Source: a virus
Length of the DNA stretch: 64,000 nucleotides
Direction: 5' to 3' (one strand)
IMG/VR virus record: IMGVR_UViG_3300042731_004843
Span: 1 to 64,000 of that record
Shown: positions 2,690-64,000 of the stretch, piece by piece
How positions within the stretch are numbered: the stretch's first letter is position 1
Layout of the letters: every line of letters starts with the position of its first letter
The notes under the pieces: generated by a model
Seen by the model: the letters and a program-made list of their open reading frames with translations, nothing else
Databases searched by the model: none
Told to the model about the DNA's origin: nothing
Translations under genes and position numbers: made by a program

Positions 2690-2923
2690 ATGGATCAACG
2701 CCTAATTGGGCTCTTCAGCGAGCTGGAAAAGATCGGGGTTAACAAGGGCCTATCCCATTTCACGCAGAGTCGTGGTGGGCGCCGACCTATCAGAGTCGAC
2801 AAGCTGCTGGAGAAGGAGAAGGCGTTTCTCCCCAAAGCACAAGACGACGATGCCTCCGAGGATGGGAAGGACCATGAGATGGAGGGAGGTCTCGGCATGG
2901 GTGAAGGCGCCACGGAGGGCTGA
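2690..2923 (+). CDS. small protein with N-terminal ELEKI tag
   Basis: ATG 2690, LFSELEKIG near the N-terminus; abuts the next ATG at 2925. Confidence 0.65.
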   Translation: MDQRLIGLFSELEKIGVNKGLSHFTQSRGGRRPIRVDKLLEKEKAFLPKAQDDDASEDGKDHEMEGGLGMGEGATEG

Positions 2924-2924
2924 C

Positions 2925-3449
2925 ATGTACGGCTCATTTTTCGATGAACTGGTCAAGTTGGCCAAGGACGAGACTGGCGAGAAGATCATGCGTGGTGCGG
3001 TGGCTGCCAGACCGTGGGCCCAGAGGTTTGTTACAGCCGGGATACCTGCAGCTGTGGCGGCCAACTTTTTTCTGCCTATGAAGGACAGTCCTTTGAAGCG
3101 TAAGCTGATAGCCGGCTCCGGACTTCTAGGCGGTGGGGCCGGTGTGGGGGAGTTGGCCGTACGTAGATGGGCGGAGAAGAACCCTCGTAAGGGTTTGGCT
3201 AAAGAGATCAAGAAGATGGGCGCGGCACAGGCGTTCCTGAAGGTGGCCGCCATGGCCGCAGATCTACGCAAAGCCGGTATCGGTGGGGTAGAGAGGCCGC
3301 CGCTGATTACGGAGGACAGCAAGGAGCACGCGTACAACAGGCTGCGGCAGTCGGCTAAGCCTGGCGAGTTCCTGTCCGCCACAAAGCCCCGCCATCTCAA
3401 GGCCCCAGGGCCGTCGATCAAACAGATCTCCGCCCTCCCAACGGGGTAG
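2925..3449 (+). CDS. basic, Gly/Ala-rich protein with FFDELVKLA tag (putative internal head/ejection protein)
   Basis: ATG 2925 follows the TGA of the previous gene with GGAGGG upstream; glycine-zipper-like segment GSGLLGGGAGVG. Confidence 0.6.
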   Translation: MYGSFFDELVKLAKDETGEKIMRGAVAARPWAQRFVTAGIPAAVAANFFLPMKDSPLKRKLIAGSGLLGGGAGVGELAVRRWAEKNPRKGLAKEIKKMGAAQAFLKVAAMAADLRKAGIGGVERPPLITEDSKEHAYNRLRQSAKPGEFLSATKPRHLKAPGPSIKQISALPTG

Positions 3450-3452
3450 ATA

Positions 3453-4223
3453 GTGGACGCCGTCAGTGACTTCCTGGAAGCGCTTGGCCAGGTCAAGGAG
3501 GCCGCGGTCAAAGACTTGCGTAAGCGGCAGGCGCAAGAGATGCAGATGTGGGAGCGGTGGAAGCAGGGTGGGGAGAAGCCACAAGACTTGCGTCCGCTCA
3601 TACACTCGTTCAAGCCTCTAGTAAGTCACCAGGCCAACATCTGGGCTGGTAAGGTGCGTGACGTACCTCCAGCGGCTATCCGGGCGGAATTCACCAACCA
3701 GTTCGTTTCCGCTCTTCAGACTTATGATCCACAGCGCGGAGCAGGACTCGGTACGCACATACGGCACCAGCTGAAGAAAGCGCAACGGTTCGTCACAACG
3801 TATCAGAATCCTGGCAGGATCCCAGAGAATCGGGTCTACCGCATACGGGAGCTGCAAGACGCAGAGATGCAGCTGGATGAGCGCTTTGGTAGAGAGCCTA
3901 CACAGCTCGAGATAGCTGACCACCTGAAGTGGTCCCCGAAACAGGTGGACGTGCTCCAGAGGGAGGTCCGCAAAGCACGACCAACGGGTCAGTTCGAGAC
4001 GGACCCATCTACGTTCACCCCGTCCAGGCAGAAAGAGGTTCTGCGCCTGCTGCCCTACGAGCTAACATCTGACGAGAAGCAGGTGTTCGAGTACATCTAC
4101 GGCGTGGGCGGGAAACCAAAACTCGGGCCCGGTCAGATAGCCCGGAAGCTGAAGATGAGCGCCCCTAAGATCTCCAGACTTAAGCGCTCCATAGCTGAAA
4201 AGTACGCGAGGCATTCAAGCTGA
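3453..4223 (+). CDS. sigma-70 family RNA polymerase sigma factor (group 3, FliA/SigF-like architecture)
   Basis: Region 2 YDPQRGAGLGTH (cf. FDPxRGxxFxTY), region 3 GREPTQLEIADHL, region 4 LTSDEKQVF...IARKLKMSAPKISRL. Confidence 0.85.
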   Translation: MDAVSDFLEALGQVKEAAVKDLRKRQAQEMQMWERWKQGGEKPQDLRPLIHSFKPLVSHQANIWAGKVRDVPPAAIRAEFTNQFVSALQTYDPQRGAGLGTHIRHQLKKAQRFVTTYQNPGRIPENRVYRIRELQDAEMQLDERFGREPTQLEIADHLKWSPKQVDVLQREVRKARPTGQFETDPSTFTPSRQKEVLRLLPYELTSDEKQVFEYIYGVGGKPKLGPGQIARKLKMSAPKISRLKRSIAEKYARHSS

Positions 4224-33436: not shown

Positions 33437-36400
33437 ATGCGACTCAAGACCGCATTCGAGTGGGCGGCGACAGGACCCAACAGGGGTGAGCGCGTACACG
33501 ATGCTCCCGTACTGTGGCGGCCCGGCAAACTGAAGCGGTCGGATTTCCAACCTGCCGCAGGGATCAATCCCGATGTAGCCAGGGGTGTTGCTCGAGAGCC
33601 GCAAGAGAAGGTCTCCATATTCGATGGGGACGGTACCAAGCTGATGCCCCACCTACGCGCCATCCACAAGCTGGGCGGCATCTCTGCCAGTGAAGTGGGG
33701 ATTGAAGACCTGGACGGCTTCAAGACCACCGGCAGGCACTACGCCAGACAGGCGCAAAGGGCCTTTAGCGACAAGCCCGTAGATGCTGGTCCTGGCTACG
33801 GGGCAGACCACGAGAGCAATAGCACGGCCGGAGAAGGCAACGAGCCCGATACTTCAGGGGAAATTCCTATCGAGGATCCGCAGGACAGCACACCTCTGCG
33901 CGGACATCTACGTAATATCAGGGGGTTAAAGAAGCAGGGGGCTGGTGTGCTGTCTGGGGAGCTGCTGGCTGGGCTGCCCAGGATAGATGTCATCGCTGCC
34001 GAGCAACAGCGCCAGCTGCTATCCAGGGCCGTCCACGAGGCCCGTAGCCGCGGCGGGGAGCTCAGAGGGGCCCAGGAGCCCTCAGCTCTACCTCTGGCCG
34101 GTGAGGGGGCTCTAGAGGGCGCTCAGTATGTCAGGCTGTCAGAGGCCGATGTAGACGCCATCAATGCCCGCCTAGCCCGCCAGGCTATGGAGAAGAGTTC
34201 GAGTTGGGATCCGCGGCTCAAATCCGTCTCTGTGACTGGCTGCGTCAAACTGGCAGAGCCGGCGCCCCGTTTGCGCACAAAGCTATTGCCCCACCAAGAG
34301 CGGGTAGTTGAGAAGCTAAAGGGGCGGCCGGGACTGGTAGTGGCTCATGGGTTGGGATCGGGCAAGACGCTGAGTTCCATAGCCGCTGCTGTACAGCTGG
34401 AGCCGGACAGGACCAAGGTACTGGTTCCGGCGTCTCTCAGGGCCAACTACCAGAAGGAGCTGGACAAGCACGTAGAAGGTACCCTGCCCATAGAGGTGGG
34501 CTCTCTACAGGGTGCGGCCGCACGCGGGGAGGTGCCGCGTGCAGACCTACTGGTGGTAGATGAGGCGCACAGAGGCAGGAACCCGCAGTCCAAAACGTAC
34601 CAGATGATCCAAGGCGCCGAGGCCAAGAAGCGCCTGATGTTGACTGCGTCACCTACCTACAACCGGCCGTCTGACGTAGCCACTCTGGTAAACATGGCTG
34701 CTGGCGATAGGGTCATGCCCATGGGTAAGGCCTTTGATGAGCGGTACATCGCGCAGCCCAAGAAGGGTATCTGGGGCCTGCTCCCGTTCTCTAGAAAGCA
34801 GGAGGGCTTGAAGCGCAAGGGAGAGCTCGGCAAGGCTTTGTCGGAGTGGGTGGACTACCACAAGTCTGGGGGCAAGGGGTTTCCAGATGTGATGGAGGAG
34901 CGCCACGCGGTCAAGATGACCAAGCGCCAGACGCAGCTTCACGATGCTGCGTGGGGACAGCTCTCTTTGTTGTCCAAGATGCGTCTGCGCCGCGGGCTGC
35001 CTCCCGACAAGCAGGACCTCTCCAAGATCAACAACTTCCAGTCTCAGACCCGGCAGATCTCCAGTACTGAGTCGCCGTACACTAAGAAGGGGCGGGGCGA
35101 GGTATCTCCTAAGATCGTGAAGGCTGTAGGGCTCCTGGACACAGAAGCCAGGGCGAACCCTGATCACAAGGCGCTGGTCTACTCTAACTACTTGGGCACC
35201 TTGAGAGACTACTCTAAGGAGCTGGAGAAGCGGAAGGTGCCCCACGCCATATTCTCCGGCCAGCAAAAGATGCGGGACCGCAAGCAGATGGTGGAGGACT
35301 ACAACGCCGGCAAACTGAAAGCCCTGCTGGTATCGTCTGCTGGAGGGGAGGGGCTGGACCTGAAGGGCACCAGGCAGGTCCAGGTACTCGAGCCGCACTG
35401 GAACGTAGAGAAGCTGAAGCAGGTGGAGGGCCGGGCCATCCGCCGCGGTTCCCACACGCACCTGCCGAAAGACCAGCAGAAGGTACTGCTGCAGAGGTTC
35501 GAGTCCTATCCACGTGGAGGCATCTTCAGAAAGCGCCGCGGTGTAGAGCAGGTGCTGGGCGACATGGCTGCCAATAAGGAGAGGCTGAACCAGGAGATGC
35601 TGGGGCTGATGGAAAAGAGCGCAGAGCCACCACCCCCAGAAGGCGTCTCCGCCAAAGAGTGGGACGAGATACTGGACAACAAGGCCAGTAAGCCGCGTCC
35701 CCTGCCCGAGGTCATAACCAAGGACCGGCTTCGTGATCCTGTTGTCCAGCCACGCGACCTTATCCGGCGGCAGGAAACCCGGATGGAAAAGAGCGCGAAG
35801 CGCAAGTCCTGTTTTGATGAGTCCGTGAGAATAGCCGTAAAGAACCCACAGCTTACGCTAATGAAGGGGGATCCTTTCAAGGGCTCTGGAGACAGGGCCC
35901 ACTTCTGGTTGGAAGACAAGGACGGAAAGATCACCGACCCTACTGCGGGACAGTACCCGAAAAGTACGAGAGTCTATACGGGTGGACGACCAGTCAGCTT
36001 GAGTAGGAATCGTGATGCAGTAGAAAGAGCTCTGCAGAAAAGAGCATTCAAGCTGCAGGGACAGACCGAAGTGCAAGGCATTCCTGTAGCCATCGAGAAC
36101 CGCAAGGGGTCTGTACGGAAGGGCAAAGATCCGGACGGCAACGAGTGGCGTACCAAGATGCAGAACCCGTACGGGTACATCAAGGGCACCAAGGGAGCAG
36201 ATGGGGAAGAGGTAGATGCCTACGTGGGCCCGGACAAGGAAGCCCCCAAAGCGTTCGTCGTACACCAGCGAGACAAAGAGACCGGTGAGTATGACGAGGA
36301 CAAGGTCATGCTGGCCTTCAAGTCCAAGGCCGACGCCAAGAGAGCCTTTCTTGCACACTACGACAGCCCCAAGTTCCTCGGACCCATCAGTGCGGTACCC

Positions 36401-37093
36401 ATGGAGCGTCTGCGGGAGCTAGTAGAGAGCAAGAAGAGGCTGGTCAAGATCTCTTTCGCCGTGCCGGTTGTAGAGGACAAAGGTTACCAGAAGAAGGTAC
36501 GCCGGAGATTCGATAAACTGACCAAAGCGCTGGCACGTCACGGGGACCCAGTGGGCACAGGGCACAAGAGGATCGTCATCCCCAAGCGTGTTATGAAAGA
36601 GGATGACCTTGTTGGGCAGCTGGGGTTCGTTCCAGTCAAGGTGGCCATCCCGGAGGCCGGGCAGTCCCGCTTTGCCAGTTTTAGGCACCCGGACAATCTA
36701 TTCCACCTGCACGAGCACGGTGATGCGTGGGTCATGCACAAAGATGAGCACCCTGCGTCCACCATGCTGGTGAAGAAGTGGCGTATGGCCAGAGAGGCCG
36801 CTAAGAGCGCCACGGGCAAGAGTCAAGCTGAAGTGAAGGCGGCTCTCAAGGCTACGGGCGGGAAGCTCAAGCCGGTCGGGGATTTCATCAGAGGCCTGCC
36901 GCACGTGGTCACGGAGGGTGTTCCTGGAGCGTACTACTACGCCAAGGGGCAGATCTTAAAGACCAAGGGTATGCGGGAGAGGGTAGAAGAAGCTGTACCC
37001 AACGCGTACAAGCGCCAGGTGACGAAGTGGATAGAGCTAAAAAAGGCCGCAAGTGCCGGCTACGCCGATCTCGGTAGCCTAGTTCAGGAGTGA
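33437..37093 (+). CDS. polyvalent multidomain protein: SWI2/SNF2-like helicase + small Cys-His-Asp domain + phage inorganic-pyrophosphatase-like (InPase) domain
   Basis: HGLGSGKT, DEAH, TASP, GGEGLDL, QVEGRAIR; SCF...AHFWL...DPT; IENRKGSVRKG...YGYIKGTKGADGEEVDAYVGP...DEDKVML. Confidence 0.85.
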   Translation: MRLKTAFEWAATGPNRGERVHDAPVLWRPGKLKRSDFQPAAGINPDVARGVAREPQEKVSIFDGDGTKLMPHLRAIHKLGGISASEVGIEDLDGFKTTGRHYARQAQRAFSDKPVDAGPGYGADHESNSTAGEGNEPDTSGEIPIEDPQDSTPLRGHLRNIRGLKKQGAGVLSGELLAGLPRIDVIAAEQQRQLLSRAVHEARSRGGELRGAQEPSALPLAGEGALEGAQYVRLSEADVDAINARLARQAMEKSSSWDPRLKSVSVTGCVKLAEPAPRLRTKLLPHQERVVEKLKGRPGLVVAHGLGSGKTLSSIAAAVQLEPDRTKVLVPASLRANYQKELDKHVEGTLPIEVGSLQGAAARGEVPRADLLVVDEAHRGRNPQSKTYQMIQGAEAKKRLMLTASPTYNRPSDVATLVNMAAGDRVMPMGKAFDERYIAQPKKGIWGLLPFSRKQEGLKRKGELGKALSEWVDYHKSGGKGFPDVMEERHAVKMTKRQTQLHDAAWGQLSLLSKMRLRRGLPPDKQDLSKINNFQSQTRQISSTESPYTKKGRGEVSPKIVKAVGLLDTEARANPDHKALVYSNYLGTLRDYSKELEKRKVPHAIFSGQQKMRDRKQMVEDYNAGKLKALLVSSAGGEGLDLKGTRQVQVLEPHWNVEKLKQVEGRAIRRGSHTHLPKDQQKVLLQRFESYPRGGIFRKRRGVEQVLGDMAANKERLNQEMLGLMEKSAEPPPPEGVSAKEWDEILDNKASKPRPLPEVITKDRLRDPVVQPRDLIRRQETRMEKSAKRKSCFDESVRIAVKNPQLTLMKGDPFKGSGDRAHFWLEDKDGKITDPTAGQYPKSTRVYTGGRPVSLSRNRDAVERALQKRAFKLQGQTEVQGIPVAIENRKGSVRKGKDPDGNEWRTKMQNPYGYIKGTKGADGEEVDAYVGPDKEAPKAFVVHQRDKETGEYDEDKVMLAFKSKADAKRAFLAHYDSPKFLGPISAVPMERLRELVESKKRLVKISFAVPVVEDKGYQKKVRRRFDKLTKALARHGDPVGTGHKRIVIPKRVMKEDDLVGQLGFVPVKVAIPEAGQSRFASFRHPDNLFHLHEHGDAWVMHKDEHPASTMLVKKWRMAREAAKSATGKSQAEVKAALKATGGKLKPVGDFIRGLPHVVTEGVPGAYYYAKGQILKTKGMRERVEEAVPNAYKRQVTKWIELKKAASAGYADLGSLVQE

Positions 37094-54276: not shown

Positions 54277-55641
54277 ATGCATACTGGATCTATCGTCGAC
54301 TTCTACGATGACCCTCAGGGACTAGTTCTGAAGAATCGTCTGCCGCAAGAAGGCGTACCGGACTTCATCAAGCAGGCAGAGTTTCTAGATGAGCATACCC
54401 GCGGCACCTTACCGGACGATGTATTTGCCCTGGTCATGGTCGACCGTGGCGAGAAGCTGCGCAAGTTCGCCTGTGTAGACAAGGGTAATGTGGCCCTCAA
54501 CGTGATCTACTTCATGGAGAACCGGGACCGCCTACCAGAAGAGGCCCAGAAGACTGCTGCGGCTAACCTGGCTAGGGCCTGTTCTTGGTTCGACCTGGCA
54601 GTACCTATGGGACTGGACAAGGAGGCGGGATTTTCTAGCCTGTTGAAGGCCCCTAGCAAGCTGGTGGGCGGGGGTATGGCTGCCGCAGATATAGGCGGCA
54701 GGGTCTCTGCAGGCAAAGAACGCCACCGACAGATGACGCGCACGGCCGACATGATCGGCTCCAACGTCATGCCCACCTCCGGTAGCAAGGAAAAGGCAGC
54801 AGCTCCTTCTACCCGTTCGGCTCTACGGGAACTGGACAAACAGAGAGCCGCAGATCCGGATCTACAGCGTAAGCTGAAGCGTACTAGAGCAGACATGAGG
54901 GCCAACCCGAGTAAGTACACCCTAAAGTCGGCCGCACTCCAGCCATATGTGGACGTCACGGGGCAGAGGCCGCCGGAGAGGATCAAGCAGGCTAGCGCGG
55001 AACGGCACTGCTTGATTAAAGAAGGTCAGGCACACTTTCCGATCGACAGCTATGGCCAGATCAAGCAAGCGTCGGTTTGGTTTGACGAGTACGGGCACAC
55101 ACTGCACCCAGCAGAGCGCCGGGAGTACTGCACCAAGCTAGCATCCAGGGCGGACGAAGTCGGCATCGAGGTCAGTGATCTCATTCGAAAATACGGGTCA
55201 CCGGGCTATGCCACGGATGGAGAAGTGAACGTCGCGGTCTGTACCAGGATGCAGCATTGGGCAGACGATGCGCCTGAGCGTGACATGCTGAAGGGGTTGA
55301 TGGAGAAAGCTGCTTCAGTCTCCCCGGATGTTTTCTGTGAAGCTCTCCGGCAGTTCGATGAAGCCACGGGCATGGACCATCTGTGGGACGATGAGATCTA
55401 CGACCCCTGGTTTTCCACGTACGGCTTCAAGAAAGAGGCCGCGTGGTCCTGGCAGAGCGGAAACGACAGAGTAACGGAAGCGCAACTAAAGCTGTCGGCT
55501 AAGAAAGACTTCTTGGCTATCCGTGAAGCGTTCGGGTTGGAGGTGGCGGAGGAGTACAGGAAGAACCCCCAGCAGGTATTTGACTCCATGCCATTGGATT
55601 CTAAGCGCATTCTTACGCGCATGGCCAACGACCCCCTGTAG
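54277..55641 (+). CDS. putative head/scaffold-associated protein with two LPDxxFA..RK(F/Y)P-like modules
   Basis: LPDDVFALV...RKFACVD and HFPIDSYGQIKQA modules; upstream of the portal; many K-x-A sites. Confidence 0.5.
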   Translation: MHTGSIVDFYDDPQGLVLKNRLPQEGVPDFIKQAEFLDEHTRGTLPDDVFALVMVDRGEKLRKFACVDKGNVALNVIYFMENRDRLPEEAQKTAAANLARACSWFDLAVPMGLDKEAGFSSLLKAPSKLVGGGMAAADIGGRVSAGKERHRQMTRTADMIGSNVMPTSGSKEKAAAPSTRSALRELDKQRAADPDLQRKLKRTRADMRANPSKYTLKSAALQPYVDVTGQRPPERIKQASAERHCLIKEGQAHFPIDSYGQIKQASVWFDEYGHTLHPAERREYCTKLASRADEVGIEVSDLIRKYGSPGYATDGEVNVAVCTRMQHWADDAPERDMLKGLMEKAASVSPDVFCEALRQFDEATGMDHLWDDEIYDPWFSTYGFKKEAAWSWQSGNDRVTEAQLKLSAKKDFLAIREAFGLEVAEEYRKNPQQVFDSMPLDSKRILTRMANDPL

Positions 55642-55644
55642 GAT

Positions 55645-56535
55645 ATGGCTACCCACGAAGAGCAGCTGCTGGGCCTCCTGGAGAAGATAGGCCAGCCGGA
55701 AGAGACCACTGCCGAGGTCCCGTCTGTACTGGACGGGACCTCCAATGACGATCACGTCGAGACGTACGGCTCTTCCGAGGACCCCAACACGGAGGCTGAG
55801 CACGAAGAGCTGGCGGCAGCCAATACTGACCGGCAAGGGATGCCGGAAGGTGCGCTGTCCCCAGTCACGAAGCGGAACATGTGGGTGCATCACGACACCC
55901 ACCCGGTAACATATGATGTGGCCCTCCTGGGCACGTACGGCACAGACTGGTTTGAGTGGGAGCCCGGTACCCTCTGGCGTGAGATCAGAGAGGACTTCCG
56001 GGTACCCTCTATCAATGACCACGCCAAGGCCAAGATACAGGCGGCGAAGACGCTGCACATCAATGAATGGTACTGGACGAAGTGGGAAGTGTTCTGCTGG
56101 ATCACGCAGGCCTTGAACAACAATATCCCGGACTTCCATGTACTCCAGAAGCCTTCCATAGCGCAGCTGATGCAGTCTGTAGACGCCGCTACGATGGTAC
56201 GCAATGACGTGGAGTTCACCCCAGAGCTCCAGATGTTCGTGGCGGCTGCGATGGTAGAGTCCGGTGTATTCTATGCCCCGAAGCCCATAGACTTTTGCCA
56301 GGACGAGATCGAGACGCTGCTTGACGAGCTTCAGATAGATAAGAGCTTGATCGGGCAAGTACAGAGCAGGTGGCGAGAGGTGAAGCAGATCTCTCCAGAG
56401 GCGTGGGCGCGTTCTCCAGAACCCGTACTGCGGGAAGACGTGGTAGACATCCAGGTAGCCAAATTGAAAGTAGCGTGCGATTATCTGGATCTACGTCGTC
56501 GCCAACTGCAGGAGCAACTGAGGCTGCTCAAATGA
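55645..56535 (+). CDS. hypothetical protein with LLGLLEKIG tag
   Basis: 296-aa ORF in the head block. Confidence 0.65.
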   Translation: MATHEEQLLGLLEKIGQPEETTAEVPSVLDGTSNDDHVETYGSSEDPNTEAEHEELAAANTDRQGMPEGALSPVTKRNMWVHHDTHPVTYDVALLGTYGTDWFEWEPGTLWREIREDFRVPSINDHAKAKIQAAKTLHINEWYWTKWEVFCWITQALNNNIPDFHVLQKPSIAQLMQSVDAATMVRNDVEFTPELQMFVAAAMVESGVFYAPKPIDFCQDEIETLLDELQIDKSLIGQVQSRWREVKQISPEAWARSPEPVLREDVVDIQVAKLKVACDYLDLRRRQLQEQLRLLK

Positions 56536-57506
56536 AGCACATCACGGCTCCCCACATGCATGGTTTCGTAAATGGGTTGACGAAGGAAGCCATCAACATG
56601 CGCAGCTTTATGGATCTCTACCGCAGAGCCGCCGGAAAGACTATTCCGGGGCACATTGGGAGGGCCACCAGCGCTATCAAGGACACGGCCAAGAAGCATC
56701 TGTCTGGTAGATACGGACGGCAGGTTGCCCTGGGCGCAGGCCTCGGTGCTGCAGGCGGTGCCGCTACTGGTGACGACGAGAACTGGAAAACTAGGGCGCT
56801 ACAGGGCGCGCTGATCGGTGGTACTGCTGCTGGCGGCCGTATTTTGGGCACAAAGGTTGGTAGGCAGGCTGCATCGGAAGCCACCAAGAGGTTCGGTGAG
56901 CGCCAGCTATACACCTTGACCGGCAAGGGATTCAAAGGCCGGGAGGTTGGCCTTGAGGACGCCAAAAGATTGGGGATCCTCAAGGTTCCGGAGTGGGAGA
57001 AGCTAAAGGATACTCCGGGCGCTGTTAGCCGGGCCGTCTCCAAGGTCACCGGGAAGCCGGCAAAGACGCAGCTGGGCCGGGAAGCTGGGCGCTATGCTGC
57101 CGATGTAGAGGCTTTCCAGAAGGGCTTTCAGAACATCCCTGGTGTGGTGCACGGCGCTCTGACCCGACCTGGGGAACTCCTACGTAGTGGTTGGCAGAGG
57201 GCAGGTACAGCTGGGAAAGTCTTCGCTGGAGCCGGCGCTCTCGAGGCAGCACGCGCAGCGACCAAGAAACCGGAGGCCGGGGATCCGGGTAGGGCTCAAG
57301 CTGCTCTTGGCAGCTTGGGGCGCACGGCCGGTTACTTGGTGGCCCCCGGGGCTATGCTGGGGCAGGTAGCGGTGGGTGGCCTGGCTGGTAAGGGCGGAGA
57401 GGCCGTGGGGAAGATAGGTGATGTGGCGTCTAAGGCCAGGAAGGCCGCGATCCAAGTCCCGTACCAGCAGTATGCTGACCTAGCCCCGTACTACGGTGGG
57501 AGGTAG
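56532..57506 (+). CDS. basic glycine-zipper protein (putative ejected/internal virion protein)
   Basis: ATGA overlap gives the start at 56532; LGAGLGAAGGAA and GALIGGTAAGG segments; FVNGLTKEA. Confidence 0.55.
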   Translation: MKHITAPHMHGFVNGLTKEAINMRSFMDLYRRAAGKTIPGHIGRATSAIKDTAKKHLSGRYGRQVALGAGLGAAGGAATGDDENWKTRALQGALIGGTAAGGRILGTKVGRQAASEATKRFGERQLYTLTGKGFKGREVGLEDAKRLGILKVPEWEKLKDTPGAVSRAVSKVTGKPAKTQLGREAGRYAADVEAFQKGFQNIPGVVHGALTRPGELLRSGWQRAGTAGKVFAGAGALEAARAATKKPEAGDPGRAQAALGSLGRTAGYLVAPGAMLGQVAVGGLAGKGGEAVGKIGDVASKARKAAIQVPYQQYADLAPYYGGR

Positions 57507-57508
57507 TC

Positions 57509-59530
57509 TTGTCCGGCGCTAGTACGCAATCTGCGTCCAGGTTCTCCAGTCGTGGTCGTTCTGGTGGAGCGCAGGACTACGGACTCCAGTACCCCAGCCC
57601 CTTCTTCGACATCGGGCAGACCTATCTCCCGGCCACCGTCAAGCAGATGTTCAGGTGGTGTAGGTACTATTACTTGGTCAACCCGCTGATCAACGCGGTG
57701 GTGTCCAAGATGGCGGAGTACCCCATCACCGACGTGCTGTTTGACACAGAGCGGACAGAGCTGAAGGACAGGTGGACAGGCTTCCTGCTGGACCATCTGC
57801 GGTACCGGGCGTTCCAGGTAGAGGTGGGGCTGGACTACTACACCTACGGTAACGCGCTTGTCTCGATCTTCTATCCGTTCTTGAAGTTGTTGGAGTGCCG
57901 CTCATGCGGCAACAAGCAGTGGGCTAAGGACGCAGAGTACAGGTTCCAGAACTATCAGTTCTACATGGTGTGCCCCAAGTGTGGGAACCATGGTCCGGCT
58001 CGAGCTTACGACCGGTACATCAAGGCGTCTAAGGGCATCAGGCTGCTTAGATGGAACCCGGAAGACGTAGACATACGCTACAACGACATCACGGGGGAGT
58101 ACGAGTACTACTACTCTATCCCGACCCAGCTCCGCAACGACATCATCATCGGCAAGAAGTCCACGGTAGAGACCGTTCCCCAGCTCTTCATAGACGCTCT
58201 GCGCCTGAAGAAGTCTGTGGTCTTCTCCCGCGACAACATCTACCACTTCAAGCGTCCAACTTTGGCGGGCAAGGACAGGGGGTGGGGTACCCCCATGATC
58301 CTCCCGGTTCTGAAGGACACGTACTACCTTCAGATCATGCGGAAGGCCCAGGAAGCCATCGCCCTCGAGCACATAGTGCCTCTGAGGGTGATCTTCCCAC
58401 AAGCCGGTTCAGCTACATCTGATCCTTTCACGTCCGTGAATCTGCAGGACTGGAGAGATCAGGTAGCCGGTGAGATCAGACGCTGGAGAGCGGACAACAA
58501 CTACATCCCAATTATGCCCCTGCCTCTAGGTCACCAGACCATCGGCGGCGACGGGCGTGCGCTCCTGCTGTCGCAAGAGATACGGGTCTGGTCCGAGCAG
58601 ATCGTGGCCGGTATGGGCATCCCTGTCGAGCTAGTGTTCGGAGGGTTGAGCTACTCTGGTAGCAACGTCTCCCTGCGCATGCTCGAGAACACCTTCCTGG
58701 GCTATCTCCAGGATCACCATTCGATGCTTAAGTGGATCATCAAGAGCACATCTGCGTATCTTGGTTGGTCCCCCGTCCGGTCCAGGTTCAAGCCGTTCAA
58801 GATGGCCGACGACCTGCAAAGAAAGGCGTATCTCTTCCAGCTCAATCAGGCCGGCAAGCTGTCGGACGAGTCCCTTTTGGCGGACGCTGACTACGATTCC
58901 GCCAAGGAGGACTTGATCATGGAGCGCGAGAGCACCCGTAGGGCGAGTGCTCATAAGAAGCGTGTCCTACAGGACGCGGACATGCAGGGCGAGGCACAGA
59001 TGGTCCAGATGAAGTGGCAGTCCAAGATGCAGGCGCAGCAGATGAAGACGGAAGCTGCTATGCAGAATGAGATAGCCAAGGACCAGGCAGCCTTCCAGGG
59101 TGAGCAGCAGAAAGACCTGATGGGCGCGCAGATGGCCATGCAGCAGGGAGGGCAGCCAGCGGAAACGGCACCAGAGATGCGGCCATCGCCAAGACGCCCA
59201 GAACTGATAGAGCCGCCGGAGCAGATCAAGTCGCCACTAACTGCTAGGTCTATGCAACCGATTCCTGCTGGGGCGACAGGAGAGTCCTTGCAGGGCAAGT
59301 CCAACATAGACCTCCTGCTTTTGGGTCGTAGGCTGGCGGACCAGCTGAACACACTGCAGCCAGTACAGAAGCAGCAAGCACTGTCCGAGCTCAGAGTCAT
59401 GCAACCAGAGCTGCATGATGTCGTTTTGGGGCTAATGGTATCAGGGGGAGCTAGAGCCTCTGCCGCAGCGGCCCGACCTCTGCCTGAACAGAAGCCGGCC
59501 CGCCGCGGACCAGAAGCGCAACTAGTCTAG
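57509..59530 (+). CDS. portal protein with Zn-ribbon insertion
   Basis: NPLINAVVSKMAEYP...DYYTYGNA...LLRWNP...IYHFK...GWGTP.I portal pattern; Q/M-rich tail. Confidence 0.75.
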   Translation: MSGASTQSASRFSSRGRSGGAQDYGLQYPSPFFDIGQTYLPATVKQMFRWCRYYYLVNPLINAVVSKMAEYPITDVLFDTERTELKDRWTGFLLDHLRYRAFQVEVGLDYYTYGNALVSIFYPFLKLLECRSCGNKQWAKDAEYRFQNYQFYMVCPKCGNHGPARAYDRYIKASKGIRLLRWNPEDVDIRYNDITGEYEYYYSIPTQLRNDIIIGKKSTVETVPQLFIDALRLKKSVVFSRDNIYHFKRPTLAGKDRGWGTPMILPVLKDTYYLQIMRKAQEAIALEHIVPLRVIFPQAGSATSDPFTSVNLQDWRDQVAGEIRRWRADNNYIPIMPLPLGHQTIGGDGRALLLSQEIRVWSEQIVAGMGIPVELVFGGLSYSGSNVSLRMLENTFLGYLQDHHSMLKWIIKSTSAYLGWSPVRSRFKPFKMADDLQRKAYLFQLNQAGKLSDESLLADADYDSAKEDLIMERESTRRASAHKKRVLQDADMQGEAQMVQMKWQSKMQAQQMKTEAAMQNEIAKDQAAFQGEQQKDLMGAQMAMQQGGQPAETAPEMRPSPRRPELIEPPEQIKSPLTARSMQPIPAGATGESLQGKSNIDLLLLGRRLADQLNTLQPVQKQQALSELRVMQPELHDVVLGLMVSGGARASAAAARPLPEQKPARRGPEAQLV

Positions 59531-59961
59531 CGCGCCAACCGTAGACGCATTTGGTTGCGGTGTTGTGCCTCTCCTTCCTCCCGCTCTCTTGCCAGAGCTT
59601 TGATTTGTGCGTCTTTGAAACGTCGGTACTGGGTGTTGTGCTGGATGTGCTTCCAGTATTCTGCCTCGGGAGTCCCCGCCTCATGCCCGCCCGCCAAAAG
59701 ACGTAGCCTCAGCTCTTCTACCGCCCTTCGCGGGTACCAGACCTCATGGTCACCCGTTTTTGCTCGGGCTCTGCTTCTGGGACCATCGGGGTTGATGTCC
59801 AGACGCTCGTGGACTGAACCACGCTGAGTTGACTTGAGGAACAGGTACTCATTGATCACGTCGTTGGGTTCATGGTAGCAGAGCCGGTCTAGGTCTTCCC
59901 GGCTAGAGATGCCCAGCTCCCGCATCCTCCGCGTCGGGTACCAACCTGACCCGCTTCTCAT
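59527..59961 (-). CDS. hypothetical basic protein
   Basis: GGAGG RBS; convergent with the portal. Confidence 0.6.
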   Translation of the reverse strand: MRSGSGWYPTRRMRELGISSREDLDRLCYHEPNDVINEYLFLKSTQRGSVHERLDINPDGPRSRARAKTGDHEVWYPRRAVEELRLRLLAGGHEAGTPEAEYWKHIQHNTQYRRFKDAQIKALAREREEGEAQHRNQMRLRLAR

Positions 59962-59970
59962 ACCATCCTC

Positions 59971-60450
59971 CTATCTGGCGATACCTAGCATTTCCCTGCC
60001 CGCGTCGTAGTTGCCGTCACCGAAATGGAACGACACGCAGTCGGCGCAGAGCAGACCCAGGTTCGCCTGATCGTCATATGGATCGAAGATCCACGTCTCG
60101 AAGTCCACCTTCCCTATTTGGAACTGGAAGGCGTAGGGGTGGACATGGAAGTCTTCCGGACATAGTCCGCACTCCCACCGACCCCCATTGGGTTTCCACA
60201 CATCACGTCTGTTCCCCACCTGCGTTAGAAAACAATGCAGGTGGAAGAACTCTATGACAGCTTCTTCACGAGTGATGTGGTTGTCGTTTTTCCAGTCTGG
60301 TAGGAAGTAGCTGTGCCCCGGGTCCTTCTTCATCGGGTACAGCCGGCCGGAGATAGCCGCTACCAGCTCATAGTCGCATCCAAATTCCTCCAGGCAGAAC
60401 CCGCACTTCTGTGCGGGGTTCACCTGGAATTGCGAAGGGATAACGTCCAT
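59971..60450 (-). CDS. Cys/His-rich (Zn-binding) hypothetical protein
   Basis: CGFC, HLHC, CGLC, CADC. Confidence 0.6.
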   Translation of the reverse strand: MDVIPSQFQVNPAQKCGFCLEEFGCDYELVAAISGRLYPMKKDPGHSYFLPDWKNDNHITREEAVIEFFHLHCFLTQVGNRRDVWKPNGGRWECGLCPEDFHVHPYAFQFQIGKVDFETWIFDPYDDQANLGLLCADCVSFHFGDGNYDAGREMLGIAR

Positions 60451-60451
60451 G

Positions 60452-60568
60452 TTATGTGGCCTGCTTACGATCCTCGTCCCCTAGCGCACGACTTAGGGCA
60501 CGCGCAATATCAGCCAGCTCGGAGAGTAGCGCGGCTCCGAAACTCAGGACGAAAACCGCCCACAGCAT
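60452..60568 (-). CDS. 38-aa hydrophobic peptide
   Basis: MLWAVFVLSFGAALLSELAD...; TAATG overlap with the upstream ORF; not in the ORF track. Confidence 0.4.
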   Translation of the reverse strand: MLWAVFVLSFGAALLSELADIARALSRALGDEDRKQAT

Positions 60569-60702
60569 TAGTCCTCATCGGAAGTGTTGTCGTCCTCCGC
60601 TTCATCTATACCGCCGGCGATCTCTTCATCGATCGTCCTCTCGAACTCTTCCAGGCTACTGCCGCTGTCTTCATGGGCGTCGTCGGTATTGTTAGGTCCC
60701 AT
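60568..60702 (-). CDS. 44-aa highly acidic peptide
   Basis: AGGAGG RBS; MGPNNTDDAHEDSGSSLEEFERTIDEEIAGGIDEAEDDNTSDED; not in the ORF track. Confidence 0.55.
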   Translation of the reverse strand: MGPNNTDDAHEDSGSSLEEFERTIDEEIAGGIDEAEDDNTSDED

Positions 60703-60841
60703 AGACTTCCTCCTGTTTGGGGCTGGAACAGCCTCTGCTTTTACTCTTCACCCTCCTTATACCCATCTGCCGCAGTATATTTCGTTGCCAGTTCTCCAGT
60801 TGATCTGGTAGGTTGTACGAACACATATACGGAGCGGCCTC

Positions 60842-63800
60842 ATGGCGCGTCTTTCCCCGGAAGAGAGCTTCGAAATTCTCAAGGACCGGGTCGCAGAGAC
60901 AGTCGGCGGGCTCTTCCCGATCGTAGGGAAGAAGCACACACTGGAACTGGGACAGGTCGACGTCAACGACAGGCTTCATATAGACGACATCCGTTCACAG
61001 AAGGAGGCCAAGCTGGGTAGCCGGACTTGGGCCGTCCCTGTGGAAGCTAAGGTCGTCTTACGAGACAACGACACAGGCAAGAGGGTGGATGAGCAAAAAC
61101 TCCGCCTCATGAGCTTGCCCAAGCACACCAGGCGCTACTCCCACATCGTCGATGGCCAGGAGTACCAGATCGACAACCAGTGGCGGCTGAAGTCCGGGGT
61201 CTACGCTCGAGTGAAGGACAATGGGGAGCTGAAGTCAGAGTTCAACCTGGCCAAGGGCAGGGGCTTCAGCTTGGGGTTCGACCCCAAGAACCGCCAGTTC
61301 CACATGTCGTACGGCACCTCCAACATACCGCTGGCCCCGCTGCTGCAAGAGATGGGTGTGCCACAAGCCAAGATACAGGAGCAATGGGGCTCTGCTATTG
61401 CCCAAGAGAACGATAAAGACGTAGAGCAGGCAGTACTGAAGTTCTACAAAGCCTCTACGGGTAAGAAGGCGGACGACTACGAGCAGGCGCGGCAGTACAT
61501 GAAGGACACGCTGACCGCGACAGAGCTGCGCCCAGACACTACGAAGGTCACGCTGGGCAAAGGGTACAAGTCGGTGACTGGGGACGCTTTGATGGATGCG
61601 TCTACCAAGCTGCTGCGCATATCCCAGGGTAAAGCAGAGCCAGATCCCAGAGACTCCTTGATGTTCAAGGACCTGCACAGCACGGAGGACTTTTTCGCTG
61701 AGCGGATCCAAAAGAGTGGTCGGGACATCACCCGGCGCATACAAAACACTCTAGATCGGAAGAAGCGTGTCAGCGACATCGTCGGCCCGGACGTCTTCAA
61801 TCGCCCCATCAGGACTATGTACCGCACTTCCCTGGCGAATGTCCCAGATCAAACCAACCCCTTGGAGATGATGTCTGGGCAGATGAAGACCACCATCACA
61901 GGCGAGGGAGGCATCAAGAGTTCGCACGCCATCACTGAGGACGCCAAGCTAGTCGACCCATCACACCTCGGGTATTTGGATCCGATACACACGCCGGAGG
62001 GGGCGTCCACAGGCGTGTCCCTGCGCATGCCTATCGGCGTGAAGAAGAAGGGCCACGATGTCGCCGTCAAGATGTTCAACGTCAAGACAGGCAGACTGGA
62101 GGACGTCAATCCAGAGAAGGCCATGAACTCCACTGTCGTCCTGCCTGACCAAGTTAGGTGGCAGGACGGCAAGCCTACGCCGGCCGGCAAAACGATCAAG
62201 ATGAGTGGGCCAGGTAATGAGATCGTCGAAGGGCCCATGAAGCAGGCGGACTACATCATGCGGGACCCCATACAGATGTTCTCCATGGCATCTAATCTGG
62301 TCCCTTTCGTGGCAGCAGACCACCCGAACCGCAGCACCATGGCGGGGAGGCACATGGAGCAGGCAATACCGCTACAACGGCGCAAGGCCCCCTTGGTGCA
62401 GAGTGTAGCGGGCACCAAGACTTTTGAGCGGGTGATGGGTGATTACGCCGGCCACACCACGCGCTTTGCTGGGGAGGTCGTGGGAATCAAGAAAGACGCC
62501 GTCGTCATCAAAGGAGACGATGGCAAGAATCATGAGGTTCAGCTATACGATCACTTCCCACTCAACGACGATAAAGGCTTCCTCCACTCGACTCCTACGG
62601 TGAAGGTTGGGGACAAGGTTAAAAAGGGCCAGCCGATAGCGGACACCAACTTCACAGATGGTGGGGCCCTAGCTCTAGGCACCAACCTCAAAGTCGGATA
62701 CATGCCCTACAAAGGGTACAACTTTGAGGACGGCATCGTGATCAGTGAAGGTGCCGCAAAGGAGTTGTCCAGCGAGCACCTTTACCGCAAGACCCTACAA
62801 CGAGACCGGCAGCACGTGCTGGACAAGAAGAAGTACCAGGCGTACGCGCCAGATGCCGTAACTCGAGAGCAATCAGACAAGCTCGATGATGAAGGGGTCA
62901 TCAAGCCAGGGCAGGTAGTGTCTCCGGGTGATACCCTGATCGCCGCACTACGCGAGAAGAAGGACACCAAGGAAGATCGCGAGCTCGCACGTATCCACAA
63001 GTCTCTAGTCCGGCCGTACACTGATGCCAGCGTGAAGTGGGAGGCTGACCACCCGGGGGTGGTGCAGGAGGTGGTAAAGAAGGGCAAGAAGTTGGCTGTC
63101 CACGTCAAGACTTTGGAGGCCGCTGAAATCGGGGACAAGATCGCCGGCCGTCACGGCAACAAAGGCATCATCACGAGCATTTTGCCGGATGACGAGATGC
63201 CACAGACCAAAGACGGCAAACCACTACAGATTCTGATGAACCCCACTGGCGTGCCCGGCCGTACTAACCTCGGCCAAGTGCTGGAGACGGCTGTCGGCAA
63301 GATAGCTGAGAAGACTGGTAAGCCGTACACGGTCAAGAACTTCCAGCCTAATGAAGATCTACACGCCAAAGTTACCGCAGATCTGAAGGCGCACGGGCTA
63401 CCTACTGACGGAAAAGAAGAAGTCGTGGACCCAAAGACCGGTAGGGTTTTGGGCAGGATCCTGACGGGGCCACAACATGTGGTCAAGTTGAAGCACCAAG
63501 TAGAGAAAAAGATGATCGCCAGGGCTGGTGGACCTGGCTATGCGTATGACAGGAACCTGGTACCCAAGGGAGGGGGCCCGCACGGGGCGCAGGCTTTGGG
63601 CACTCTCGGCCTCTACTCCATGCTGGCGCATGGCGCTAAGGCCAACTTGAGGGAGATGCAGACTCTCAAGAGTGACGCAGGCCAGAGTGATGAATTTTGG
63701 GCCGCCCTACAGGCTGGGGAAGCGCTGCCGGCGCCACGTCCCACGTTCGCGTACAAGAAATTCACCAGCTATCTCAACGCGCTAGGGGTCAACGTTAAGA

Positions 63801-64000
63801 AGGACGGCAACAATCTCTCACTCATCCCGTTCACCGATAAGCAGGTGGAGGAGATGAGTAATGGGCAGATCAAAGACGCAGCCAGGATGGTGCGGGCCAA
63901 GGACCTACGCCCAGAGACTGGAGGGCTGTTCGATCCCAAGACCACTGGCGGTGTTGACGGTACGAAGTGGAGCCACATTCGTCTGGCCGAGGCTATGCCC
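60842..64000 (+). CDS. rpoBC: multisubunit-type DNA-directed RNA polymerase, beta subunit fused to beta' (3'-truncated by the window)
   Basis: PSHLGYLDPIHTPEG, GYNFEDG (62714), GDKIAGRHGNKG (63131), KLKHQVEKKMIAR, LREMQTLKSD; continues in frame into beta'-like LRPETGGLFDP...WSHIRL. Confidence 0.92.
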   Translation, partial: MARLSPEESFEILKDRVAETVGGLFPIVGKKHTLELGQVDVNDRLHIDDIRSQKEAKLGSRTWAVPVEAKVVLRDNDTGKRVDEQKLRLMSLPKHTRRYSHIVDGQEYQIDNQWRLKSGVYARVKDNGELKSEFNLAKGRGFSLGFDPKNRQFHMSYGTSNIPLAPLLQEMGVPQAKIQEQWGSAIAQENDKDVEQAVLKFYKASTGKKADDYEQARQYMKDTLTATELRPDTTKVTLGKGYKSVTGDALMDASTKLLRISQGKAEPDPRDSLMFKDLHSTEDFFAERIQKSGRDITRRIQNTLDRKKRVSDIVGPDVFNRPIRTMYRTSLANVPDQTNPLEMMSGQMKTTITGEGGIKSSHAITEDAKLVDPSHLGYLDPIHTPEGASTGVSLRMPIGVKKKGHDVAVKMFNVKTGRLEDVNPEKAMNSTVVLPDQVRWQDGKPTPAGKTIKMSGPGNEIVEGPMKQADYIMRDPIQMFSMASNLVPFVAADHPNRSTMAGRHMEQAIPLQRRKAPLVQSVAGTKTFERVMGDYAGHTTRFAGEVVGIKKDAVVIKGDDGKNHEVQLYDHFPLNDDKGFLHSTPTVKVGDKVKKGQPIADTNFTDGGALALGTNLKVGYMPYKGYNFEDGIVISEGAAKELSSEHLYRKTLQRDRQHVLDKKKYQAYAPDAVTREQSDKLDDEGVIKPGQVVSPGDTLIAALREKKDTKEDRELARIHKSLVRPYTDASVKWEADHPGVVQEVVKKGKKLAVHVKTLEAAEIGDKIAGRHGNKGIITSILPDDEMPQTKDGKPLQILMNPTGVPGRTNLGQVLETAVGKIAEKTGKPYTVKNFQPNEDLHAKVTADLKAHGLPTDGKEEVVDPKTGRVLGRILTGPQHVVKLKHQVEKKMIARAGGPGYAYDRNLVPKGGGPHGAQALGTLGLYSMLAHGAKANLREMQTLKSDAGQSDEFWAALQAGEALPAPRPTFAYKKFTSYLNALGVNVKKDGNNLSLIPFTDKQVEEMSNGQIKDAARMVRAKDLRPETGGLFDPKTTGGVDGTKWSHIRLAEAMP

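Follow-up and report, generated by a model that had tools for sequence, protein, structure and literature searches.

In cellular-type RNA polymerases, alpha is seen as the subunit on which assembly universally depends, and a gene at the end of one stretch of viral DNA raises the question of whether a bacterial-type enzyme can be reduced to a single chain that does without it. The stretch, called the window here, comprises 64,000 nucleotides (bases 1-64000) of the 108,145-bp IMG/VR virus record IMGVR_UViG_3300042731_004843, which has a G+C content of 58% and is 58% complete by CheckV; positions above 64000 are those of the full record. From an ATG at 60842, a reading frame runs without a stop to the end of the window and on to a stop at 67000 in the full record, giving a protein of 2,052 amino acids (aa) in which an RNA polymerase beta subunit passes directly into a beta' subunit. 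We consider it highly probable that this protein is a working bacterial-type RNA polymerase core in one polypeptide, with a sigma partnership of its own; whether the enzyme is packaged in the virion is left out of that judgement. The parts of the gene that lie in the window are as follows.

60842-64000, plus strand: fused beta-beta' RNA polymerase gene; first 1,053 of 2,052 codons in the window, continuing to 67000 of the record
60842-61831, plus strand: predicted beta lobes beta1/beta2 (aa 1-330); compact, without a Pfam match, assigned from an AlphaFold2 model
61844-61912, plus strand: equivalent of rifampicin cluster I, fork region (PDQTNPLEMMSGQMKTTITGEGG); Pfam Rpb2_3, aa 335-393
62579-63535, plus strand: beta catalytic double-psi barrel and flap (Rpb2 domain 6, aa 580-898); PF00562, E 3e-65
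63581-63610, plus strand: variant of a universal beta motif, HGAQALGTLG against bacterial GGQRFGEMEV in the alignment
63797-63814, plus strand: junction KKDGNN (aa 986-991) between LGVNV and LSLIPFTD, from family alignments
63815-64000, plus strand: beta' N-terminus (clamp), with VDGTK in place of the four-cysteine (Cys4) zinc-binding domain

Evidence for the fusion came from the order of Pfam matches along the chain, where Rpb2_3 and Rpb2_6 (aa 335-898) are followed by Rpb1_1, 1_2, 1_3 and 1_5 (aa 1135-1957). The best matches among PDB sequences are bacterial beta' chains, headed by C. difficile 7l7b_D (E 5e-107, aa 1065-2030 against chain residues 142-1130), and identity to bacterial beta and beta' is 25-31% over nearly the full length. 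An earlier note on this DNA had followed the frame from ATG 60842 to the window end and read it as beta and beta' fused in one open reading frame (ORF), and both statements are borne out. The note had also asked that the contig be extended and a catalytic DxDGD be sought downstream in the same ORF. NADFDGD was found there at aa 1388-1394 (65003-65023), and D1390, D1392, G1393 and D1394 are invariant across 40 family members. Further along the chain lie the bridge helix GARKG at 65831-65845, with PF04998 matched, and the trigger-loop FHTGG at 66260-66274; GE..TQL..FHTGG is kept, and the trigger loop carries no lineage-specific insertion. In the beta half, GDK..GRHGNKG at 63146-63166 is kept in the family and in bacteria.

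Structural models cover two parts of the protein. When aa 1-470 were modelled with AlphaFold2 (mean pLDDT 78), the result matched the B1-B2 region of Mycobacterium tuberculosis beta (4kbj_A) with Z 23.3 and a root-mean-square deviation (rmsd) of 4.5 over 318 residues aligned by VIA-align; model residues 1 to 327 are aligned to residues -1 to 425 of 4kbj_A. The modelled beta1/beta2 lobes are thus present yet compact, at 327 aa compared with about 425. A second model, of aa 880-1385, has a mean pLDDT of 72, with values of at least 90 across most of its core, and matches the bacterial beta' N-terminal clamp with Z of about 24 and rmsd 10.8 over 319 aligned residues. Its residues 109 to 474 fall on E. 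coli beta' residues 16 to 423, and aa 1183-1227 form a helical hairpin corresponding to the clamp helices. Other elements of the beta half depart from bacteria. In the family alignment, the bacterial cluster I consensus sqLSq.mDqtNpl.elth.RrlsalGpGG is mostly substituted, which suggests that the enzyme may be insensitive to rifampicin. The RpoB C-terminal universal motif GGQRFGEMEVWA is replaced by HGAQALGTLGLYSML, and the family consensus at this position is just loosely related to it.

The boundary between the two subunits is short. LGVNV (aa 981-985, 63782-63796) is the last conserved beta element, and the beta end ...FAYKKFTSYLNALGVNV aligns with bacterial ...ESFxVxxKELxxLxxDV. Behind KKDGNN comes the first beta' element, LSLIPFTD at 63815-63838, comparable to bacterial LRVGLASPE, and LSLIPFTDKQVEEMSNG aligns with the bacterial beta' segment LRVGLASPEKIRSWSFG. 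At the junction the beta C-terminal tail has been lost, and with it about 15 residues from the start of beta'. When the junction stretch alone (aa 940-1130) was compared with PDB sequences, no meaningful match was returned, and the junction was therefore defined by family alignment and structure. In the clamp model, residue 109, which is aa 988 of the fused protein, sits on E. coli beta' residue 16; the beta' part therefore starts at about aa 988, directly behind the last beta element. The earlier note's description of a compact beta of about 985 aa that ends at LGVNV and leads straight into beta' is accurate, coordinates included.

A further deletion lies a short way into beta'. GGLFDPKTTGG (63920-63952) is followed by VDGTK (63953-63967) and then by WSHIRLAEAMPNP from 63968. 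At this place the phage proteins have a 32-column gap where all 28 bacterial beta' sequences carry KDYECxCGKYK....CxxCGVEV. The gap was seen in two automatic alignments, an L-INS-i alignment of the junction and an FFT-NS-2 alignment of the whole concatenated sequences, and no larger block is both occupied in at least 80% of the bacteria and missing from the family. The N-terminal Cys4 domain (CxC-x12-CxxC) is absent: the whole protein has four cysteines, none before aa 1700, and across the 22 scorable family members the junction segment contains no cysteine. All four cysteines (C1700, C1761, C1768 and C1771; 65933-66160) belong to the second beta' zinc site and are nearly invariant in the 40-member alignment. 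These data agree with the deletion of the zinc finger, with about five residues left, that the earlier note had proposed.

The sequence at the junction is supported by independent assemblies. Read support had been asked for over 63780-63830, and the junction is spanned by Logan contigs from two wetland metagenome runs with 0 differences and 0 indels (record 8 of run X1, covering 63737-64000, and record 26 of run X4, covering 63734-63884); X1 may be the sample from which the virus record derives. Contig depth peaks at 63112-63166, where it reaches 199 compared with about 4 elsewhere. A repeat was considered for this peak and rejected, because the stretch coding for GRHGNKG attracts contigs of many unrelated bacterial rpoB genes at 90% likeness; the peak is an effect of the conserved motif.

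The same architecture recurs widely, in wetlands, sediments and other habitats. A scan of IMG/VR returned 33 loci with 44-79% identity, and in each of the 25 complete copies the protein is encoded by one frame, 2,031-3,591 aa long. When the beta' half was searched against 1.84 billion representatives, at least 150 clusters (at 50% identity) matched with E < 1e-194. The majority of these are about 2,000 aa or longer, the longest being 4,739 aa, and the shorter entries look like fragments; the beta' part begins at around residue 1,000, and further along where inteins precede it. Long relatives are interrupted, in frame, by insertions of 337-522 aa; these fall at six sites within conserved motifs (HTPEG, GRHGNKG, NADFDGD and others), after aa 387, 767, 943, 1393, 1770 and 1808 of the fused protein. 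These insertions are inteins, since LAGLIDADG, Hom_end and intein-splicing domains are found inside them. They occur in loci L014, L015, L020, L021, L026, L027, L029, L035 and L037, with four in the 3,591-aa protein of L029, and the copy in the present record has none. Inteins within the catalytic motifs of relatives imply that the host protein is under selection to function.

The nearest relatives in a collection of phages are Vibrio phages D69, D148 and D181 (187 kb) and Salmonella phage Arash (181 kb), with 31-33% identity in the polymerase and 97-98% coverage for the Vibrio phages. They share the fusion of beta to beta', a portal gene just upstream and an orthologous sigma factor, and the D69 polymerase also lacks the zinc-binding domain. 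Their chain, however, is interrupted behind the catalytic barrel, near aa 1478/1485 of the fused protein, giving a beta plus N-terminal beta' protein of 1,525-1,527 aa and a separate C-terminal beta' protein (609 aa in D69), whereas here there is one chain. The Vibrio phage genes were deposited as hypothetical proteins; in the Arash paper the genes are annotated simply as beta and beta', and their products were found in virions (PMC10585845). A tblastn comparison of Arash with the present record gave E 0 for the polymerase.

A sigma gene lies near the other end of the window.

3453-4223, plus strand: phage sigma-70-family factor, 256 aa; Pfam Sigma70_r3 34.2 bits (cut-off 25.3), r4 19.6 bits

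The ORF at 3453 had been named as a sigma gene in the earlier note, and the Pfam region 3 match, likeness to the Arash sigma gp10 (26.6% identity, E 7e-24) and orthologues in relatives (69, 54, 40 and 32% identity) all sustain that assignment. A 287-aa ORF on the minus strand (2750-3613) was rejected as an antisense translation. A complex model of sigma with a fragment of the fused protein's clamp gave an ipSAE of 0.76, compared with 0.01 for the best of three controls; the mark applied is reached by 58 of 80 solved complexes and by 2 of 110 mismatched pairs. At least 43% of contacts are shared between runs, the partner's pLDDT is at least 72, and the predicted interface places clamp helices aa 1185-1218 against sigma residues 70-89 and 117-124, which is the canonical arrangement. 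Since complexes of sigma with beta' have already been solved, the pass speaks for likeness to them and not for binding. Sigma is presumably the specificity subunit of the fused polymerase. A consensus scan for sigma-70-like promoters around or within the polymerase gene found 0, with 2.2 expected.

Genes for the remaining core subunits appear to be missing. No match to the alpha N-terminal domain (PF01000, PF01193) or to omega (PF01192) was found at E <= 1 in this record and four relatives, which are 64-95% complete and include a 199-kb record at 95%; the profile controls gave matches in 14 of 14 reference genomes. The earlier note had seen no alpha gene in the window and had asked for this search, the outcome of which extends its observation. 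Each genome, in this record and in relatives, has a single polymerase gene.

The position of the family relative to bacteria was examined with a quick tree of concatenated beta and beta' (2,176 columns, LG+G4, no outgroup). Its rows were 28 bacteria, the Helicobacter fusion, 16 fused phage proteins, Vibrio phage D69 and Cobetia phage Carin-5; the bacterial rows represent 14 phyla by record title, the candidate phyla radiation included, and archaeal and mReC sequences were not among the rows. The fused family and D69 form one clade (SH-aLRT 100), in which D69 is sister to every fully fused protein. All 29 bacterial rows lie beyond another fully supported branch, of length 0.69, and the Helicobacter fusion clusters with Campylobacter. 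Carin-5 falls between the bacteria and the phage clade; its branch is very long and fewer than half of its columns are filled, so its placement is unsure. Judged from these sequences, the family does not appear to be a recent capture from a sampled phylum, and a quick tree of this kind does not give its source. The phylogeny against bacterial RpoB and RpoC that the earlier note had sought thus places the family outside all 14 phyla. Of that note's phrase "a streamlined, bacterial-derived phage RNAP", the phage part is upheld by the surrounding genes, and "bacterial-derived" is not, the family being nested in no sampled bacterial phylum.

Two further explanations can be weighed against these results. 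Nothing was found in favour of a mis-assembly, a frameshift joining two genes, or host DNA in a viral bin: the junction is spanned identically by contigs from two runs, its sequence is kept in 26 loci with a single frame in every one, and at least 150 clusters match, the majority with the same layout. Portal, terminase, baseplate and DNA polymerase genes flank the polymerase; the region is phage DNA, not host chromosome. Contigs, loci and clusters have already refuted an artefact, to which we attach next to no probability. Recent capture of a host rpoB-rpoC operon, or carriage of an rpoBC fusion of the Helicobacter/Wolbachia type as a passenger, would explain why 25-31% identity to bacterial beta and beta' extends along almost the whole length, and natural bacterial fusions do occur, as in the 2,901-aa protein of Helicobacter anseris (L095). 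Such a capture is nonetheless very improbable: the 29 bacterial rows lie across a fully supported branch with the Helicobacter fusion beside Campylobacter, the deletions are family-wide, the junction is different and far shorter, and the gene order around the polymerase is phage-internal and conserved.

In the reading that we favour, a compact beta (aa 1-985) is joined through about six residues to a compact beta' (aa 992-2052), and the covalent link would replace the alpha-dimer assembly platform, leaving a core that would be catalytically active and independent of alpha. The phage sigma would sit on the beta' clamp helices and give promoter specificity, as in bacterial holoenzymes. Polymerase and sigma might also be packaged in the capsid and injected, in which case early phage genes would be transcribed without the host polymerase. 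The genes around the polymerase bear on this last step.

57509-59530, plus strand: portal protein gene; tblastn with the Arash gp204 portal, 32% identity, E 6e-86

The portal was recognised solely via the annotated Arash protein. In at least 20 related loci the order is portal, two small minus-strand genes, polymerase, a hub-like gene with weak Pfam matches to Phage_base_V/Gp5_C, a 670-aa gene and the large terminase gene TerL; the homologue of the Arash TerL lies at 72243-74072 of this record. A portal gene also lies upstream of the polymerase in Arash, in D69 and on a 204-kb contig described below. In gradient-purified Arash virions, the polymerase product Gp206 gave the most spectra of any protein (3,516, compared with 1,333 for the capsid protein), and Gp216 and the sigma factor Gp10 were also detected (PMC10585845). 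Because the gene is fixed in the portal-hub-terminase block and because the Arash homologue and sigma are abundant or present in virions, we regard packaging and injection as about evenly balanced.

Several points weigh against this reading as a whole. The virion-associated set in Arash comprises 116 of 272 proteins, including ribonucleotide reductases and a primase, and its authors allow for carry-over (PMC10585845). The Arash polymerase is, moreover, just 33% identical to the present one, with beta' split. For the fully fused members, enzyme activity is predicted from sequence and models. In the sigma ORF, Sigma70_r2 (PF04542) has no match at E <= 1. With the record 58% complete, it is the relatives that carry the case for missing alpha and omega genes, and the profiles would not pick up an alpha that has diverged very far. 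Finally, with GGQRFGEME replaced and the zinc-binding domain gone, the phage enzyme may have lost or altered some of what its bacterial counterpart does. In E. coli the domain takes part in hairpin-dependent pausing and termination.

The same fused enzyme could instead be made after infection, as a non-virion polymerase for middle and late genes, with the host polymerase reading the early genes. T7 RNA polymerase and the phiKZ non-virion RNA polymerase are examples of non-virion phage polymerases, and we give this alternative a substantial chance, somewhat short of even. Carry-over into the Arash virion list is possible given the many non-structural enzymes in it, no packaging signal was identified, and each genome has one polymerase gene, in contrast to the phiKZ-type phages with their distinct virion and non-virion sets (PMC7598289). 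On the other hand, the gene invariably lies between the portal and the hub-like gene, a position typical of particle components; the Arash homologue outscores the major capsid protein in spectra; and the sigma gene stands among structural-type genes both in this phage and in Arash. A different departure would have the fused chain borrow host alpha, and perhaps omega, for folding or for responding to activators, as a hybrid of phage and host. The overall bacterial architecture of beta and beta' would fit such an arrangement. We think it unlikely, given that fusing beta to beta' does away with the chief reason for an alpha platform, that alpha-less multisubunit phage polymerases such as that of AR9 are active in vitro (PMC7598289), and that a family so far from the bacterial lineages is unlikely to fit the alpha subunits of many hosts.

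Parts of this design are already known: bacterial-like beta and beta' in phages (mReC and Arash), alpha-less enzymes in phiKZ and AR9, and single-chain enzymes in crAss-like phages. The earlier note had pointed to the Helicobacter rpoBC fusion as a precedent, and the Helicobacter anseris protein found here confirms it: it too has beta followed by beta' in one ORF, but it keeps the zinc-binding domain and has a linker of about 25 residues, compared with about six here. Helicobacter and Wolbachia have alpha and omega. In the crAss-like gp66-type RNA polymerase, one polypeptide holds both catalytic barrels and probably enters the cell from the virion. The crAss-like fusion is mentioned in a study that reports no detectable homology to COG0085/COG0086 (PMC7481178); by that description the type is set apart from the present protein, with its match to bacterial beta' at E 5e-107. 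The phiKZ/AR9-type polymerases are two-barrel enzymes without alpha and omega, one set of which is packaged in the virion (PMC7598289). They consist of 4-5 polypeptides, with two sets per genome and no sigma homologue, and are very divergent; here, in contrast, there is one chain, one gene, a sigma-70-family factor and clear likeness to bacteria. The polymerases of mReC phages are likewise compact, bacterial-like and readily alignable; they fall outside the cellular clades, as the present family falls outside the bacterial rows of the tree. The supplement of that study lists beta (about 1,000 aa) and beta' (about 900-1,370 aa) as separate, and no fusion is mentioned for mReC (Weinheimer & Aylward 2020, PMC7481178). 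Cobetia phage Carin-5 (L130, PV155638.1), a cultured phage, has an operon in which a sigma gene adjoins separate genes for beta (1,083 aa) and beta' (927 aa). The beta' keeps the Cys4 zinc-binding domain, and the phage may be a cultured example of the mReC or two-gene metagenomic phage polymerases.

A literature search of incomplete coverage found no paper describing a fully fused family without the zinc-binding domain. If the favoured reading is right, a single-chain, sigma-dependent enzyme would show how little of the bacterial core suffices, would allow a direct test of the roles of the zinc-binding domain and alpha in assembly, termination and antitermination, and would offer an expression system of bacterial type with two genes. 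Were the polymerase delivered along with the DNA, these phages would add a third case of virion-delivered polymerases, beside the N4/crAss-type and the phiKZ-type. A family outside the sampled bacterial phyla also bears on the debate over ancient viral RNA polymerases, and the lineage is a very large one (at least 150 clusters), with conserved gene order and frequent inteins. In its fullest form, the proposal is that beta-beta' plus sigma is the smallest natural bacterial-type transcription machine, without alpha, omega or the zinc-binding domain, packaged in the capsid and threaded into the host cell so that infection is independent of the host polymerase (with resistance to its inhibitors probable), and a hallmark of a vast, deep-branching phage lineage. 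We put this combination forward tentatively, as a real possibility that does not quite reach an even chance.

One relative outside the virus records is a 2,873-aa fused member with 37% identity (L041), on a 204-kb contig (DAOQAF010000001.1) of a metagenome-assembled genome (MAG) labelled "Bacteroidales bacterium". This contig also carries a portal homologue and sigma-like ORFs, and the alpha gene of the MAG is on a different contig. It is probably a large phage binned with the MAG and may give a hint of the host. Among the intein-bearing loci, the portal homologue was matched over about a third to a half of its length in L014, L015, L027, L029 and L035, and there may be insertions, possibly inteins, in the portal gene too.

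The remaining neighbours are mostly unlike known families. PHROGs gave no match for nine neighbouring proteins, the portal included, and recognised TerL alone; the neighbours at 54277-60450 and at 67000-71503 of the record are almost all without a PHROG or Pfam match. In the 391-bp gap before the polymerase lies a small, very acidic ORF on the minus strand (60456-60711, with ATG 60711 behind GGAGG), and a plus-strand 79-aa ORF in the same gap is probably not a gene. Upstream of the acidic ORF, also on the minus strand, is CGAAA-N16-GGTATAAG at 60756-60784. The minus-strand motif G[GT]TATAAG occurs 2 times in the window, with 1.4 expected, and is not enriched. Elsewhere in the window, 33437-37093 on the plus strand encodes a 1,218-aa protein with an SNF2/DEAD-type helicase part and, at E 1e-43, an InPase (inorganic pyrophosphatase-like, PF18823) domain.

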